Part shown: one piece after another, positions 38,278 through 44,761 of the stretch
Position numbering within the stretch: position 1 is the first letter of the stretch
How the letters are laid out: every line of letters begins with the position of its first letter
Assembly: GCA_965223325.1 (NCBI GenBank)
Contig: CBDCWI010000001.1
Span: forward strand, 672,001 to 736,000
Reading direction: 5' to 3'
DNA length: 64,000 nucleotides
Source of the DNA: Candidatus Multivoradales bacterium
GTDB taxonomy: Bacteria; Acidobacteriota; Thermoanaerobaculia; Multivoradales; Multivoraceae
Made by a program: the position numbers and the translations under genes
Notes under the pieces: generated by a model
The model's input: only the letters and a program-made list of their open reading frames with translations
The model's database searches: none
What the model was told of the DNA's origin: nothing

Positions 38278-38468
38278 GACCAAAGACCTCGTTAGGGACC
38301 GGCGGGCCCCGCTGTTGAAGGCCGCGCCAGGCGGCGCGGCAATCGCGGCCGTTTAAAAGGACGCGAACCCCCATTCGGGGGCTCTTAGGAAAAGGACGTT
38401 CAAGTTCAGATTGCGGCCATCTTAGTCCGAGCCCTCGCGCACGCTCCAGCGTTCGACCGCTCCCCCGC

Positions 38469-41400
38469 TCAGGCTCCGCTGCTCGCGGCACCACCGTGGC
38501 GCGCAACGATTTCGAGCCACTCCCCGCCCCACCGGTCGGCTTTGGTCGGCCCAATGCCAGGAATGCGGAGGAGGGCGTCCGGGTGGCTGGGCTGAGCCGC
38601 CGCCAGCGCAACGAGGCTTTTGTCGTGCAGGATGGTAAAGGCCGGGACCTTGCGCCGGCGAGCCTCTGCCAACCGCCACTCGCGCAGGGCGTCGACCAGC
38701 GCCTCTGGTGCGTCTGCACCAACCAGAGCGAGCTTCTTGCCGGCACCTTTCGCCCGCGAGCGGCGCCTGCCTCCCGAGCGGCGGCTCTTCTTGGCGGTCT
38801 CATCGGGAAAGGCGTCCTCGGGAAGGCGAATGGCTGCCAGGACGGCATCGAGGCCGGCTGCGCCTGAGTCCGCCGCAAAGGCGTCGTTCCCCCCTCGCCG
38901 GCTGCTCCAGAGACGCTTGATCCGCGACCCGAGGCGGGCGCGCTTGTACTCGATCTTGCGCCCGTCTTTTTCGAACGAGTCGACATCGACCAGGACCAGA
39001 CCGGCGCGCGCGAGACCACCCAGGAGGTCCTCGAAGTCGCCGCGATCAGTCGTGGCGTGGATGCCGTGGACGTCTTTGAACAGACGCCCGGTGCCCTGAC
39101 CGCGGCGCGCCTTCTCGAGCTCCACAAGAATGGTCTTCATCACCTGGACCTCGTCACTGTGCGGAGCACGTGACCCCAGGGCCAGTGCCTCGTCTGGGGC
39201 ACAAACGTCACACTGCCCGCAGGCGCGACCGTCGTCTTCCTGGTCGCCAAAGTGACGCACCAGCGACAGCATTCTGCAGGCATGCCCCTGTGCGAAGCGA
39301 CACATGTCCTCGAGCTGAGCGGTGCGATGGTCGCGTTGCGCAACGTAGGGTTGCCACCAGTTCTGGTGGCCCTGGCGGAGGTTCTCCTCGGGATCGACCA
39401 GCGCGCCGCCGTGGATCCACAGCTTCTCGACCGACGGTCGCATGACCTCGTCGTCGAGGTCGAGCATCGCCCCTACTTCGTCGATCGTGCGCGGGTCTTT
39501 CCCGAGCGCACGCCAGATCTGAGCCAGCACTTTCGGGTGCGGGTAGTCGCGGCCGTGGAAGAACTCGTGCGTGCGGCGGTCGGCCCACGACCAGAGCAGG
39601 AAGGCGCGGGAGCTCCGACCGTCGCGCCCGGCCCTGCCGATCTCCTGGTAGTAGCCCTCGAGGGTGCCGGGCAGGGCGGTATGAACGACCGAGCGCACAT
39701 TGTGCTTGTCGATTCCCATGCCGAAGGCGATCGTGGCGACCACTACATCGACGTCTCCTTCGAGGAAGCGCTTCTGTACCTCGTCGCGACGCGCCGAGGG
39801 CAACCCCGCGTGGTAGGCCTCGGCACCGAACTCGCCCTCGAGAACCGACGCGATGTTCTCGGACTCCTTGCGGGTCGGAGCGTAGACAATCGCCGGCCGG
39901 CGTTCCGAGGCCGCCAAGAGGCGGGCGACCACTGCTGCCCGCGCCCCCGGACGGATTTCTGCCACCTCGATGGCAATGTTGTCGCGCCGGAAACCATGGA
40001 TGTGAAGGGCAGGCTTCAGGAGGCCCAGCTGCTCGGCAATGTCGCGCTGAACCCGCGGGGTCGCAGTCGCAGTAAGCGCGATCACTGGCGCCGGGCGAAG
40101 CGCCGGCAGCCGTTCTCCGAGCAGGCGATAGTCCGGCCGGAAGTCATGCCCCCACTGCGAGATGCAGTGCGCCTCGTCAATGGCGACGAGACCGGGCGGC
40201 TGAAGAGCCAGGAGCTCAGCGAAGCGTTCGATTCCCAGGCGCTCGGGTGCGACGTAGAGAAAGTCGAGCTCACCGTTCTGCCACGCGCGAGCCGCCGCCC
40301 TCGACTCCTCGAAGGGGCGTCCCGAGTGAATGCGCTCGGCGGAGAAACCGTCTTGCTGAAGCTTGATGACTTGATCTTCCATGAGCGCAATCAGCGGTGA
40401 AACCACCAGGGTCGAGCCGCCCCTGGCGATACCGGGCAGTTGGTAGCACAGTGACTTGCCGGCGCCGGTCGGCATCACCAGCAAAACATCGCGGCCAGCG
40501 ACCACCGCCTCGCAGACGCGTTCCTGGAAGGGCCGAAAGTCGTCGAAGCCAAAGCGCTCAGCGAGTACCAGCTTGATTTCGAGGGGTGCGCCGGCCCTGG
40601 CCCGGGTACGCGCCCGCTTGCGGGCCGGCGGTTTCGCCGGCGCCTCTTCGTCCGGCGACGCCTGCTGGAGAAAGGTCTCGCTTGGCGACGTTCGAGCTGG
40701 CGATGCGCCAGGGGCTGCCACTGGCGCGCGACTCGGGCCAGGTGACGATTCCGGTACCCCGCCCGGCGCAGGAGACGCCGCGGCCCAGTCTTCACCTTCG
40801 AAGAGATTGAGGGTGCCTGGTTCTTCTGGTGGCTGGTCTTCTGCAGCCGGCGCGGTCGCATTCCCCGCCGCTTCGCCGAAAGTTCTACCGACCGCCTCGC
40901 GCACGAAATCCTCGATGCCCTGCCAGAAGACGGATAGTTCACCTTCGCCGCGCTCGATCGCCTTGAGCTGCGCTTCCCACTCACCGGTCAGGGCAGGGCT
41001 CTTGACCATCGGGTGGACGCGCGCAATAAGGTCGATTCCTTTCTCGGTCGCAGCGAGTGCCTTCTTTAGTCGTTCGATATAGCCGCGGCGCAGCAAACCC
41101 TCGATGGTCTCGGCGCGAGTCGCCGGAGTCCCGAGACCACGATCCCGCATCGCCTCCTCTAGCTCCCGTTCGTCGAGGGTCTTGCCGGCAGTTTCCATTG
41201 CGGTCAAGAGGGTGGCCTCGGTGAACCTCCTGGGAGGTCGGGTCTCTTTCTTCTGACTCTCGAGGAGAGCGCAACGGCCCGGGAAGCCCTCTTTGAGCTC
41301 GGCAGGCAGCTGGCTCTCCTCCTTGGACGCTTTGGAGGACTTCTTCTTGCGGCCTCTGCCGCGCGGCAGCTCGAGGTCGAGCACCTTCCAACCTGGATCG

Positions 41401-42863
41401 AGGGTTTGCGTGCCGCGGCTCTGAAAACGATCTCCGGCCTCGGATTCGACCAGAGTGATGACGATCGTCGTGGCGGTTTTCCAGGGCACATGCCAGGCCA
41501 TCAAGAGACGGCGACAAACCAGATCGTAGAGCCTCGCCTCGTCTCCCGAGAGACTCTCCGGCGCCCGGTTCTCGGTCGGAAGAATGGCGTGGTGGTCGGT
41601 CACTTTGGACCCGTCGACGAACCGCTTCCCGAGCTTTTTCTGGCCAGTGCCGGCGGCCAGTTTGCCAGCGTAACGATGTTCGATCGCGGCGACGACCTGG
41701 GGCAGCTCGGCCTCGTTTTCCGGCGCGATGTGGCGACTGTCGGTTCGTGGATAGGTGATCAGCTTGCGCCCTTCGTAGAGACCCTGCGCAACCTGCAGGG
41801 TGCGCTTGGCACTCCAGCCCCACAGGCGGTTGGCGTGCCGTTGAAGCTCGGTCAGGTCATAAAACCGTGGCGCCGCCATCGAACGCTGGCGGGCATCGAG
41901 TGACTCGACGCGAGCCGGCGCGTTCAGACAGCGCTCGATGATGGCGGCGACCTGCTCTTCTGGGCCGGGCCCTTCGGCTGACTCCTTCTTCTCGCCGCCC
42001 GCTTTGGCTTCATCGGGCACGAAGAAACGAAAGGCCTTTTGGTCCTTGGGGTCGGCAAGGTAGCGGCCCTTCCAGACCACCGGCGAGCCCTCCTCTGAGG
42101 TGCCTTCAAAAGAGGCATCGGAGACAGGCCGCCCTTCGAACGTCGCCTCGACCTCGAAGTAGGTCTGCGGCACGAAGGCCCGTATCTCGAGTTCACGCTC
42201 GACGACCATCGCCAGGGTCGGCGTCTGCACACGGCCGACCGGCAGGGTTTCGTCAGCCGCGAGGCTGGTCGCCCGCGACAGGTTCATGCCCACCAACCAG
42301 TCGGCGCGGCTACGCCCGCGCGCCGCGTCGGCGAGACCGTCGAAGTCTTCCGCCGGCCGCAGGTTCAAGAAGCCCTGGCGAATCGCAGCCGTGGTCATGT
42401 TCGAGATCCACAACCGACGCACCGATTTCCTGGCTCCCGCTGCTTCGTAGAGGTACCGGAAGATCAACTCGCCCTCGCGACCGGCGTCGGTCGCCGACAC
42501 GACGCCAGTCACCGCCCGCGCCCGCAACAGGCGCTTTACGACAGCGAACTGCTCCCTGGTCTTCTCCTGGACCGCAAGGGGCCACTCCTCAGGCAGCATC
42601 GGGAGAGCGCTGCGACGCCAGCGCTTCCAGTCGGGGCGGATTTCGTGGGGCTCGGGAAGCCGCACCAAATGGCCGATCGCCCAGGTGACCAGCCAGTCGT
42701 CGCCTTCGAGGTAACCGTTGCGACGCTGGTTGGCCCCGAGGACCCGGGCCAGGTCTCGCGCCACGGAGGGCTTCTCGGCCACTACCAGGGTTTTCTTGCC
42801 GGTGGGGGCGGGTTCACGTGTGGCGTTCTTTTTGCGCCTCGATTTCTTCCTGGTTGGTGACAT
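38469..42863 (-). CDS. topB-recQ: DNA topoisomerase III - RecQ helicase fusion protein
   Basis: Toprim AEKPSVA and DAGREGE; catalytic ITYPRTDS; LGTPATRA; Pro/Ala linker; RecQ TGAGKS, DEAHCISQWGHDFRPDY, QEIGRAGRDG; Zn site C..CGQCDVC; HRDC. No internal stop. Confidence 0.93.
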   Translation of the reverse strand: MSPTRKKSRRKKNATREPAPTGKKTLVVAEKPSVARDLARVLGANQRRNGYLEGDDWLVTWAIGHLVRLPEPHEIRPDWKRWRRSALPMLPEEWPLAVQEKTREQFAVVKRLLRARAVTGVVSATDAGREGELIFRYLYEAAGARKSVRRLWISNMTTAAIRQGFLNLRPAEDFDGLADAARGRSRADWLVGMNLSRATSLAADETLPVGRVQTPTLAMVVERELEIRAFVPQTYFEVEATFEGRPVSDASFEGTSEEGSPVVWKGRYLADPKDQKAFRFFVPDEAKAGGEKKESAEGPGPEEQVAAIIERCLNAPARVESLDARQRSMAAPRFYDLTELQRHANRLWGWSAKRTLQVAQGLYEGRKLITYPRTDSRHIAPENEAELPQVVAAIEHRYAGKLAAGTGQKKLGKRFVDGSKVTDHHAILPTENRAPESLSGDEARLYDLVCRRLLMAWHVPWKTATTIVITLVESEAGDRFQSRGTQTLDPGWKVLDLELPRGRGRKKKSSKASKEESQLPAELKEGFPGRCALLESQKKETRPPRRFTEATLLTAMETAGKTLDERELEEAMRDRGLGTPATRAETIEGLLRRGYIERLKKALAATEKGIDLIARVHPMVKSPALTGEWEAQLKAIERGEGELSVFWQGIEDFVREAVGRTFGEAAGNATAPAAEDQPPEEPGTLNLFEGEDWAAASPAPGGVPESSPGPSRAPVAAPGASPARTSPSETFLQQASPDEEAPAKPPARKRARTRARAGAPLEIKLVLAERFGFDDFRPFQERVCEAVVAGRDVLLVMPTGAGKSLCYQLPGIARGGSTLVVSPLIALMEDQVIKLQQDGFSAERIHSGRPFEESRAAARAWQNGELDFLYVAPERLGIERFAELLALQPPGLVAIDEAHCISQWGHDFRPDYRLLGERLPALRPAPVIALTATATPRVQRDIAEQLGLLKPALHIHGFRRDNIAIEVAEIRPGARAAVVARLLAASERRPAIVYAPTRKESENIASVLEGEFGAEAYHAGLPSARRDEVQKRFLEGDVDVVVATIAFGMGIDKHNVRSVVHTALPGTLEGYYQEIGRAGRDGRSSRAFLLWSWADRRTHEFFHGRDYPHPKVLAQIWRALGKDPRTIDEVGAMLDLDDEVMRPSVEKLWIHGGALVDPEENLRQGHQNWWQPYVAQRDHRTAQLEDMCRFAQGHACRMLSLVRHFGDQEDDGRACGQCDVCAPDEALALGSRAPHSDEVQVMKTILVELEKARRGQGTGRLFKDVHGIHATTDRGDFEDLLGGLARAGLVLVDVDSFEKDGRKIEYKRARLGSRIKRLWSSRRGGNDAFAADSGAAGLDAVLAAIRLPEDAFPDETAKKSRRSGGRRRSRAKGAGKKLALVGADAPEALVDALREWRLAEARRRKVPAFTILHDKSLVALAAAQPSHPDALLRIPGIGPTKADRWGGEWLEIVARHGGAASSGA

Positions 42864-43075
42864 TGAACTGACTCTCTCAGGTTCTGACGGTTGTCGAAAG
42901 GGCTGTTCTGACGCGTCTTTCCAGACGGAGTGCCTGCCTGGGCTCTCAGTACCCTGAGACGCAAAATGGCGCCGAAACATGACGTGCTCTGTCCCATGCG
43001 ACTCGCGAGACCCAAGGGTCCAACACGGCTAGACTCGCCTCCATCCCGCTCCTCCCAAGAGAGGTCAGAACGCCC

Positions 43076-44761
43076 ATGCCTCGACCCCCAGCCTGCCGAC
43101 ATCACGAGCCGCAGCAGCCGCGGCGCCCGAGGGCCAACTCGCCAGGCGCCCTTCCAAGCATCGTCGTTTTCCTCCTCTCGGCGGCACTTCTCGTTGGCTG
43201 TCCTGAACCCGAGCCCTTTTCGTTGGTCATCTTGCACACCAACGACACGCACGCCCGTTTCCTGCCCACCAACCAGATCGGTTCCACCTGCCGCGACGAA
43301 GACCGCGCCGAGCGCTCTTGCCGCGGCGGCGTCGCGCGACGCGCCTCTCTAGTCGCCGACGTACGCAACCAACACCCCAACGTCCTTCTCCTCGACGCCG
43401 GCGATCAATTCCAGGGCACGCTTTTCTATTCGCGATTCAAGGGGCTCGTGGCGCAGCGCACCATGAACGCTCTGGGTTACGACGCGATGGTCCTCGGCAA
43501 CCACGAGTTCGACGACGGCCCGCCGGTGCTGGCCGAATTCGCCAAGGGCCTCGAGTTTCCCCTGCTCGGCGCCAACATCGATACGAGCGCCGAGCCTCTC
43601 CTGGCTGGCCTCATCGAGAGCAGCACCGTTGTCGAGCGCAGCGGCCGCCGTATCGGAATCGTCGGCTGGATCACTGAAGAGACCGCCCAGCTCTCGAGCC
43701 CCGGCCCAACCGTAGAGTTCGGGGCTATTCAGAGCGCCGTCGAACGTGAGGTCAAGAGTCTCACGGCCCAGAACATCGACGTCATCATCGGGCTCTCGCA
43801 CGCCGGACACCGCTCTGACCTCGAGATCGCCAGAACGGTCGCCGGTCTCGATGTGATCGTCGGCGGTCACACCAACACCCGGCTCTCCAACACCGACGAA
43901 GACGCCGAGGGGCCGTATCCCGAGGTCGTCACAGGGCCTGAAGGTGACCCCGTCCTGGTCGTGACCGACTTCGCCTGGGGCCACTATCTCGGTCAGGTGA
44001 CCGTCGAGTTCGACGCCAAGGGCAGAGCGTTGACCTGGGAGGGCGAGCCGCGACTTCTCGACAGCGACGTACCCGAGAACCCAGCGATGGCCGAGCTGCT
44101 CGCTCCGATGACGGCCGAGATCGCAACCTTCGCTGCCGGTGAGGCAGGCTCGAGTACCGTCGACCTGATCGGACGCGAAAGCATCTGTCGAGCGCGCGAA
44201 TGCAACCTCGGCAATTTGATTGCCGACGCTCTCCTCGACGCCCACCGCGAGGTCGGAATCGAGGTCGCCCTCCAGAACGGCGGCGGCATTCGGGCCAGCC
44301 TTCCCGCCGGCGCCATCAGTCGCGGCCAGGTGCTCGAAGTGCTTCCGTTCGGCAACACGGTCAGCACTTTTGGATTGCTCGGTCGCGATCTCGGAGCGGT
44401 ACTGGAACATGGCGTTTCGCAAGCACACGACCTCGACCTCGGCGGCACCGGACGGTTCCTTCAGGTGGCCGGTCTGCGCTACCGCTTCGACGTGCGAGAA
44501 CCGCCGGGCGAGCGCGTCCTCTCGGTCGAGGTGCAGGAGGCCGACGGCAGCTGGCAGCCGCTCGACCGAGAACGGACCTATCGCGTCGCCATGAACGCCT
44601 TCAACCGCAACGGTGGCGACGGCTACACCGTCCTCGCCGAGCGCGCCATCGACCCCTACGACCAGGGAGCCACCCTGGCAGAAGTGGTGACGGACTATCT
44701 GGTCGAGCATGCGCCGGTGGAGCCGACGATCGACGGCCGGATTGTTCGAATCGAGAACTGA
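43076..44761 (+). CDS. 5'-nucleotidase / UDP-sugar hydrolase lipoprotein
   Basis: LLVGC lipobox; HTNDTH, DAGDQFQG, GNHEFD, GGHTN, NGGGIRA, PFGN. Confidence 0.92.
   Translation: MPRPPACRHHEPQQPRRPRANSPGALPSIVVFLLSAALLVGCPEPEPFSLVILHTNDTHARFLPTNQIGSTCRDEDRAERSCRGGVARRASLVADVRNQHPNVLLLDAGDQFQGTLFYSRFKGLVAQRTMNALGYDAMVLGNHEFDDGPPVLAEFAKGLEFPLLGANIDTSAEPLLAGLIESSTVVERSGRRIGIVGWITEETAQLSSPGPTVEFGAIQSAVEREVKSLTAQNIDVIIGLSHAGHRSDLEIARTVAGLDVIVGGHTNTRLSNTDEDAEGPYPEVVTGPEGDPVLVVTDFAWGHYLGQVTVEFDAKGRALTWEGEPRLLDSDVPENPAMAELLAPMTAEIATFAAGEAGSSTVDLIGRESICRARECNLGNLIADALLDAHREVGIEVALQNGGGIRASLPAGAISRGQVLEVLPFGNTVSTFGLLGRDLGAVLEHGVSQAHDLDLGGTGRFLQVAGLRYRFDVREPPGERVLSVEVQEADGSWQPLDRERTYRVAMNAFNRNGGDGYTVLAERAIDPYDQGATLAEVVTDYLVEHAPVEPTIDGRIVRIEN

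Follow-up and report, generated by a model that had tools for sequence, protein, structure and literature searches.

The window examined here is a stretch of 64,000 nucleotides (nt) from the genome of a Candidatus Multivoradales bacterium (contig CBDCWI010000001.1 of assembly GCA_965223325.1), and the subject of this report is one gene on its minus strand in which a DNA topoisomerase III (Topo III) and a helicase of the RecQ family are joined in a single polypeptide. The open reading frame (ORF) is uninterrupted over 1503 codons, occupies positions 38469..42980 and ends with a stop codon at 38469-38471. In the order of translation it encodes a type IA topoisomerase of the TopB type, a disordered linker and a full RecQ-family helicase composed of an ATPase core, a Zn-binding module, a winged helix and an HRDC domain. 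The likely start is Met40 of the frame, at position 42863, which gives a product of 1464 amino acids (aa). A GAGAGAG stretch is located about 9 nt upstream of this ATG, and the public gene call P0002 (1464 aa) begins at the same residue, P0001 from residue 40 onward being identical to P0002. A preliminary description of this DNA, prepared from the letters and the list of open frames, had proposed a single unbroken ORF fusing Topo III to RecQ. The frame itself and the Pfam and NCBIfam matches, which were judged against each model's own cut-off, bear this out, and the upper coordinate given there (42863) is the in-frame Met40 with which the public gene call starts as well. It can be said that the gene is real, fused, conserved and chromosomal, and that it is inherited vertically within the family of the window.

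The topoisomerase half

The Toprim domain of the first half contains Glu69 within AEKPS and the acidic motif TDAGREGE at residues 164-171 (42468-42491), and the catalytic Tyr410 is found within ITYPRTDS, residues 408-415 (41736-41759), where it aligns to the YPRSD motif of E. coli Topo III. Glu69, TDAGREGE and Tyr410 are invariant in alignments of 25 and 120 fused relatives, the latter being the best 120 matches (1332-1570 aa) of a search in a collection of 5.8 billion proteins. Over its length this half aligns to residues 3-592 of the E. coli Topo III chain, and its core is modelled by AlphaFold2 (AF2) with a predicted local distance difference test score (pLDDT) mostly above 85. The NCBIfam models PRK07726 'DNA topoisomerase 3' (629.5 against a cut-off of 597) and TIGR01056 topB (543.8 against 515.75) are both passed, and the topA_bact model gives 195, below its cut-off of 456.4. 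A TopB-type enzyme with a Toprim domain and its catalytic Tyr in ITYPRTDS, as recognised from the letters at the outset, is thereby confirmed by curated models and by the location of the motifs.

Residues 599-618 form a loop that can be aligned, apart from one gap of a single residue, to residues ~500-521 of E. coli Topo III, of which residues 502-519 are what we take to be the Topo III-specific 'decatenation loop'. It is conserved in the family and is acidic or mixed in character, not basic. The acidic motif of the Toprim domain has the form Asp-x-Gly (DxG), where E. coli Topo III has Asp-x-Asp (DxD). A change specific to the fusion was considered and ruled out: stand-alone clostridial TopBs have DxG too, and the form therefore marks a TopB subfamily and not the fusion. 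The half as a whole is of the PRK07726 'topoisomerase 3' type, its closest stand-alone relatives among the matches listed being clostridial, with 40-45% identity.

The RecQ half

The helicase half aligns to residues 14-345 of E. coli RecQ and to its Zn module. It contains the Walker A motif TGAGKS (838-843), the DEAH box (935-938) and motif VI QEIGRAGRDG (1112-1121), and the Zn-binding cysteines are C1235, C1254, C1257 and C1260; all of these are invariant in the 25 and 120 fused relatives. The general family model recQ_fam (TIGR00614) is passed with 383-386 against a cut-off of 219.8, and the canonical RecQ equivalogs are not reached (TIGR01389, 478-483 against 640.2; PRK11057, 380-384 against 1015).

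When the RecQ half was modelled alone from a 57-row alignment, AF2 gave a pLDDT of 91.5 and a predicted template modelling score (pTM) of 0.84, with two RecA-like domains, a spacer, the Zn module, a winged helix, a disordered Lys/Arg-rich stretch (~aa 1400-1425) and HRDC following each other in this order. The predicted winged helix with its beta hairpin lies at residues 473-555 of the RecQ half and has no Pfam RQC match. The best Foldseek matches of the model are BLM structures (E ~3e-36) and bacterial RecQ catalytic cores, winged helices included; for the structure 1oyw the E-value is ~1e-34 and the target-normalised TM-score 0.72. The preliminary description had called the RecQ complete. 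This holds by Pfam for the helicase motifs, the Zn module and HRDC, and the RQC winged helix is present only in the AlphaFold model and not in Pfam.

An addition to that description is the spacer by which the Zn module is set apart from the ATPase core and which is missing in E. coli RecQ. It comprises ~70-80 aa and is predicted to fold into three helices and a beta pair in a winged-helix-like arrangement. The fused and stand-alone members of the clade have it conserved alike, therefore it is a feature of the RecQ clade and not of the fusion. Conservation of the RecQ half, calculated segment by segment for 32 fused and 23 stand-alone sequences, is also nearly equal, with the exception of one 15-residue segment of the spacer at aa 1186-1200 (KLWIHGGALVDPEEN), which is more conserved in the fused sequences than in the stand-alone ones (entropy difference 0.57 bits).

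The linker

Between the homology anchors of the two halves there are 106 aa (aa 698-803), of which 84 (aa 707-790) are predicted to be disordered. The linker had initially been described as a Pro/Ala/Ser stretch of ~80 aa; it is rich in Pro, Gly, Ala and Ser, and the length has been revised to 84 aa by disorder or 106 aa by anchors. In all 120 fused relatives the linker is present with a length of 40-235 aa (median 104.5) and consists mainly of P (18%), G (14.5%), A (13%) and S (10%), being also rich in R. No linker motif is shared by these 120 relatives: L.LF occurs in 3 of them, the clamp-like [QT]L..[LF]F and an SSB-tail-like ending in none, and a basic run [KR]{3,} in 5. In an AF2 model of residues 40-1239 (79-row alignment) both bodies are modelled confidently, and residues 668-751 of the construct have a pLDDT of 30-37 and no secondary structure. 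The pTM of this 1200-aa two-body construct is 0.61 compared to 0.84 for the RecQ half alone, which hints only roughly that a fixed interface is missing. The models would fit a pair of complete enzymes, each autonomous and joined by a flexible tether, and would not fit a rigid coupled machine; the tethered pair is preferred to a rigid machine of the reverse gyrase kind because the linker varies between 40 and 235 aa and has no conserved motif.

Four disordered stretches rich in Lys and Arg are also seen in the window protein: the N-terminal tail (~42792-42863), a loop inside the topoisomerase core (~41325-41360), the end of the linker (~40590-40634) and the stretch preceding HRDC (~38721-38795). 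Possibly they serve as extra DNA-binding tails. The one in the linker is lineage-specific, since a basic run is found in the linkers of only 5 of the 120 relatives. The coordinates of the domains and of the accompanying features are collected in Table 1.

Table 1. Features of the Topo III-RecQ gene in the window (positions are those of the 64,000-nt stretch, residues those of the 1503-codon frame)
Feature	Position	Strand	Basis
Toprim domain, aa 64-194	42399..42791	minus	PF01751, 35.1 vs cut-off 23.1
Type IA topoisomerase core, aa 214-681	40938..42341	minus	Topoisom_bac PF01131, 345 bits
Disordered Pro/Gly/Ala/Ser-rich linker	40572..40889	minus	AF2 pLDDT, alignment of relatives, no Pfam match
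RecQ ATPase/helicase core, two RecA-like domains, aa 816-1121	39618..40535	minus	Pfam DEAD 816-978, Helicase_C 1017-1121
Clade-specific winged-helix-like spacer, ~aa 1136-1205	39366..39575	minus	Gap in alignment to E. coli RecQ; AF2 pLDDT >90
RecQ Zn-binding module, aa 1214-1260, four cysteines	39201..39341	minus	PF16124, 33.8 vs cut-off 25
RQC-type winged helix with long beta hairpin (predicted), ~aa 1268-1350	38931..39179	minus	AF2 model, Foldseek
HRDC domain, aa 1426-1492	38505..38705	minus	PF00570, 68.5 bits vs cut-off 23.8
Terminator-like hairpin and T run, ~85 nt past the stop	38365..38384	minus	Consensus scan only, weak evidence

Integrity of the fused frame

Logan contigs of four public sequencing runs were mapped on positions 38300-43100; they come from three samples of one study, perhaps including the source of the window itself. 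The contig of X1 spans the whole of this stretch (38300-43100), that of X3 covers 40149-41719 and that of X4 39721-43021, so the linker is bridged three times, with 0 differences and 0 gaps. The linker had been singled out in the preliminary description as the place where a stop, a frameshift or a misassembly might break the fusion. There is none, and the contigs of the three runs agree.

Evidence from other organisms points in the same direction. All six Pfam domains are found in 120 of the 120 best relatives, the named ones of which are labelled 'DNA topoisomerase 3/III' and belong mostly to Thermoanaerobaculia or to metagenome-assembled genomes (MAGs) of Acidobacteriota, and the ESM Atlas holds several clusters with the same architecture (96, 70 and 322 members). 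The relatives are overwhelmingly fused, and the suspicion that they might always have the two enzymes in separate genes has fallen away.

Distribution

Among 31 close genomes both halves are in one frame in 7, and the others have either a stand-alone orthologue of the RecQ half without TopB or only a more distant RecQ. A scan with each species represented by a single genome confirmed 590 loci, of which the best 80 were examined. These comprise 31 one-frame fusions, 1 fused locus cut by a contig end (L058), 31 lone orthologues of the RecQ half, 15 stand-alone TopBs, all of them from Bacillota and with 39-45% identity, and 2 loci with adjacent halves in different frames (L048 and L061). The last two both have isolate names of the MFD series, and the topoisomerase half of L061 is matched as four separate pieces, suggestive of sequencing error. 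Named fused loci belong to Acidobacteriota (Terriglobia, Bryobacterales, Thermoanaerobaculia, Acidobacteriaceae), Myxococcota (Polyangiaceae, Myxococcaceae and others) and Bdellovibrionota (Oligoflexus, Bdellovibrionales).

For surveys of whole phyla, even samples of genomes were searched with the topoisomerase half at E <= 1e-100. In Acidobacteriota, the phylum of the window, 8 of 401 genomes match; in seven the frame is 1348 aa or longer, and the eighth has a stand-alone TopB. Myxococcota gave matches in 109 of 301 genomes; 102 have a fusion-type topoisomerase at 50-60% identity, 91 of these in frames of at least 1200 aa (the counts include one unpublished genome, G621, and several of the shorter frames are cut by contig ends). 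When four myxobacterial genomes with large contigs were fetched, both halves were present in one frame of 1457-1653 codons in all four. In Bdellovibrionota a fusion-type topoisomerase in a frame of at least 1200 aa was noticed in 2 of 201 sampled genomes. The fusion is widespread in Myxococcota (~30% of sampled genomes), Acidobacteriota and Bdellovibrionota have it only here and there, and databases file proteins with this architecture by the thousand as 'DNA topoisomerase 3'. The commonness of the architecture lowers its rarity, not its apparent lack of study.

Several side observations were made in these surveys. Eleven sampled Myxococcota genomes (L126 G458:C5 and ten more) have a different TopB without RecQ fusion, with 40-44% identity to the topoisomerase half of the window protein and frames of 963-1103 codons, which imply a C-terminal extension of ~350-450 aa; 4 of the 11 genomes have the fusion as well. 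A fused locus labelled Solirubrobacteraceae (Actinomycetota; L055) forms a short branch inside Bryobacterales sequences, and a stand-alone RecQ labelled 'candidate division WWE3' (L043) pairs with a Myxococcota sequence. These two placements reflect either mislabelled or contaminated bins or recent transfers.

Evolutionary history

The history of the two halves was followed in quick LG+G4 trees, in which stand-alone TopBs are narrowly sampled and the root is set by the outgroup. In a tree of 51 topoisomerase halves the 35 fused ones form one group (Shimodaira-Hasegawa-like approximate likelihood ratio test, SH-aLRT, 99), which excludes 15 clostridial TopBs and one stand-alone TopB from Acidobacteriota. 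The second tree comprises 81 RecQ sequences, with canonical RecQs from relatives as the outgroup (SH-aLRT 100), and within the ingroup fused and stand-alone members are interleaved. The locus of 'Candidatus Multivorans' groups with genus g11 of the window's family, which agrees, as do the names of the nearest protein matches, with Acidobacteriota as the phylum of the window. Between the fused and the stand-alone state the best RecQ tree needs 12 changes, and branches with good support demand at least 4, as counted after correction of three mis-scored and three undecidable rows. The simplest reading of these trees would be that the fusion arose once and that the topoisomerase half was then lost on repeated occasions, for which a clade of 15 Acidobacteriaceae and genus g11 provide examples.

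Genome content and neighbourhood

The genome to which the window belongs (6.69 Mb, 2 contigs, 98.2% complete) has two type IA topoisomerases, namely the fusion and a TopA of 936 aa (TIGR01051, 800 bits). The fusion is its only TopB and its only RecQ-family gene above cut-off; a stand-alone topB or recQ, the presence of which had been left to be checked, was not found above cut-off in this genome. As a separate observation, many other genomes with the fusion have a second RecQ-family gene, which is either canonical or an unfused member of the clade to which the RecQ half belongs (e.g. L035 and L084 in one Polyangiaceae MAG).

Downstream of the fusion, on the same strand, there is a Met-zincin (DUF4953), and upstream a divergent 5'-nucleotidase followed by a GAF-PAS-GGDEF-EAL protein. 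In relatives from the family the 5'-nucleotidase flanks the fused gene in three genomes (G001, G005 and G003) and the zincin in two (G003 and G008). The identity of the flanking genes in these relatives is 54-58%, similar to the fusion's own divergence, which points to vertical inheritance of the gene at a chromosomal site that has remained stable. In genus g11 the stand-alone RecQ is not beside a 5'-nucleotidase or Met-zincin of the window type within the flanks compared, and deletion of the topoisomerase half in situ is not demonstrated there. No mobile or defence genes were noticed near the fusion, its neighbours being ordinary metabolic and signalling genes. When the ORFs found up to 4 kb from each of 40 fused loci were compared all against all, no neighbour family recurred in more than 5 loci, and no Rmi1-like or SSB-like conserved neighbour emerged.

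Comparison with known systems

The closest functional parallel is the pair of E. coli RecQ and Topo III, acting with SSB, which belongs to the same two enzyme families and has the same catalytic motifs. In contrast to this pair, the window protein is one polypeptide with the topoisomerase first, and its RecQ half has the extra spacer. The eukaryotic 'dissolvasome' (Sgs1-Top3-Rmi1, BLM-TOP3A-RMI1/2) likewise combines an HRDC-bearing RecQ-family helicase with Topo III; in the window protein the attachment is covalent and not by docking, and no conserved neighbour with an Rmi1-like oligonucleotide/oligosaccharide-binding fold (OB-fold) is present at the 40 fused loci. Top3-Sgs1 fusions with the same N-to-C topology as the natural fusion were reportedly engineered by Bennett and Wang in 2001. 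According to a 2020 paper (PMC7245102), the joint activities of RecQ and Topo III include catenation and decatenation and the resolution of converging forks.

Reverse gyrase is also a natural single chain of an SF2 (superfamily 2) helicase-like ATPase and a type IA topoisomerase. Its helicase, however, is N-terminal, lacks the Zn module, the winged helix and HRDC and contacts the topoisomerase via a latch, whereas the window protein consists of two complete enzymes separated by a disordered linker. With the reverse gyrase model TIGR01054 only the topoisomerase part matches, at 94.5 bits where 471.7 is the cut-off. The preliminary description had likewise set reverse gyrase apart by a different helicase and the opposite arrangement.

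A RecQ-like protein with a comparable spacer is RqlH of M. smegmatis, which, as described in PMC3378886, has ~80-90 aa between its RecQ-like ATPase domain and a tetracysteine Zn module, has no HRDC and ends in a ComF/phosphoribosyltransferase-like domain. The position and approximate size of this spacer are the same as in the window's RecQ half, a likeness by description and not by alignment. In contrast to the RqlH clade, the window protein has a winged helix and HRDC, and no ComF/phosphoribosyltransferase match was obtained with Pfam.

Proposed function and alternative explanations

On this evidence the gene product probably consists of a TopB-type Topo III and a RecQ, both catalytically intact, with a long disordered linker running from the topoisomerase to the N-terminal end of the helicase, and works like the known two-protein pair. 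Its biochemical activities and cellular role are inferred by analogy with that pair. The preliminary description had suggested a self-contained decatenase or Holliday-junction dissolvase, which, given the activities of separate RecQ and Topo III and the intact catalytic residues, seems reasonable. In the proposed mechanism the RecQ half would bind forked or junction DNA via its winged helix and HRDC and unwind it in the 3'-5' direction using ATP, opening the DNA at forks, gaps or junctions. The tether would hold Topo III at high local concentration and in fixed 1:1 stoichiometry, and the topoisomerase would then cleave the exposed single strand and pass another strand through the transient break. 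The net outcome could be the unlinking of late replication intermediates, converging forks and precatenanes, catenation and decatenation, and the crossover-free dissolution of hemicatenanes or double Holliday junctions. Being covalent, the tether would take the place of recruitment by SSB, as in E. coli, or by the helicase N-terminus and Rmi1, as in eukaryotes.

Several points weigh against this proposal. The sub-cut-off score of the RecQ half with the canonical models, together with the extra spacer, may mean a substrate preference differing from that of E. coli RecQ. The topoisomerase half appears to have been lost repeatedly with RecQ kept, and judging from the trees the coupling would be dispensable in many lineages. 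The fusion is not always the sole RecQ either: 4 of 5 checked fusion genomes have another RecQ-family gene, as do at least 3 relatives, and the role of the fusion could be narrower where such a second gene exists. Finally, no biochemical, genetic or expression report on the fusion or any relative was found.

It is rather unlikely that the protein is a second natural helicase-type IA machine besides reverse gyrase, in which the tether would do more than raise the local concentration, ATP hydrolysis would be mechanically coupled to strand passage and processive unlinking or supercoiling, independent of SSB and Rmi1, would go beyond what the mixed halves achieve. Quite improbable, too, is a tightly coupled ATP-driven type IA machine like reverse gyrase, in which the helicase, in contact with the topoisomerase at a defined interface, would act as its gate and confer a directional activity that the separate proteins lack, for instance processive unlinking or ATP-dependent supercoiling. 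Such a machine would agree with the conservation of the covalent fusion across three phyla and with the stronger conservation of the spacer segment at aa 1186-1200 in fused relatives (0.57 bits), and reverse gyrase itself is an example of how a helicase-topoisomerase IA fusion can create a new activity (PMC7245102). These points are countered by the opposite domain order, by the low score with the reverse gyrase model and by the disordered linker of variable length and no conserved motif. Moreover, the RecQ half keeps its Zn module, winged helix and HRDC and has the same conservation profile after topoisomerase loss, which appears to have happened repeatedly, and the pTM of the two-body construct reaches only 0.61.

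It is very unlikely that the ORF is not a functional unit, i.e. that cleavage of the linker or separate initiation of RecQ yields two proteins, or that the fusion is an artefact of assembly or annotation. A long disordered linker is accessible to proteases, internal GTG or TTG starts are possible, and the halves are in different frames at 2 of the 80 related loci (L048 and L061). However, an ATG-initiated separate RecQ is impossible, because no ATG occurs between residue 658 and residue 836, the latter being already inside helicase motif I, and the two-frame loci are MFD-series isolates, one of them with a topoisomerase in four pieces, as sequencing error might leave it. An artefact is further opposed by the contigs of three samples which bridge the linker without a difference, by the fused state of 120 of 120 best relatives and of 4 of 4 fetched myxobacterial genomes, and by the one-frame halves at 31 of 80 loci, with one more fused locus cut by a contig end. 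In three phyla a single frame has been kept through a low-complexity linker of variable length, which speaks for selection acting on the joined protein.

That the gene is an accessory of a mobile element or a defence island, with a role in conjugation, plasmid maintenance or anti-phage activity, is equally hard to credit and was rejected: TopB homologues are very frequent on conjugative plasmids (the topoisomerase half matches at least 5000 plasmid records, 4080 of them predicted conjugative) and the distribution within phyla is patchy, but none of the 5000 best-scoring plasmid records and 0 of the 54 matching phage records covers 80% or more of the protein, the neighbours are ordinary metabolic and signalling genes with family synteny at a divergence equal to that of the fusion, no neighbour family occurs in more than 5 of 40 fused loci, and the fusion is the genome's only RecQ and only TopB.

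Significance of the natural fusion

The cooperation of RecQ and Topo III is universal, and in humans the BLM-TOP3A pair is defective in Bloom syndrome. How motor and strand-passage enzyme act in concert has yet to be settled, one reason being the dependence of the complexes on additional subunits or on SSB. A tethered Topo III-RecQ pair that is natural, conserved and single-chain, with 1:1 stoichiometry and without an obvious accessory partner, would lend itself, as an uncomplicated system, to genetic, structural and single-molecule studies, and may serve as a minimal natural model of RecQ-Top3 coupling. Many of the myxobacterial genomes bearing the fusion are single large contigs.

No description of a natural Topo III-RecQ fusion was found in the literature searched, which comprised open-access PubMed Central (PMC) and bioRxiv. 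The single-chain protein resides in databases under a name that hides its helicase half, and apparently it is unstudied. With the annotation 'DNA topoisomerase 3', genome surveys would score carriers of the fusion as lacking RecQ. In PMC7245102, written by a laboratory working on reverse gyrase and type IA topoisomerases, hyperthermophiles are said to have 'uniquely' fused these functional units; the present fusion corrects this view of reverse gyrase as the unique case.

Adjacent recQ and topB genes in Listeria

In Listeria monocytogenes NZ_LR134400.1 (L128 2480-6429) recQ and a gene annotated 'DNA topoisomerase III' are neighbours on the same strand, separated by 24 nt. In contrast to the window protein, to which the identity is ~40%, these are separate genes, and recQ comes first, which is the opposite order. 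The adjacency can be taken as an independent hint of functional linkage between the two enzymes. The record NZ_LR134400.1 is labelled a plasmid, yet it is 594 kb long and typed as non-mobilizable.

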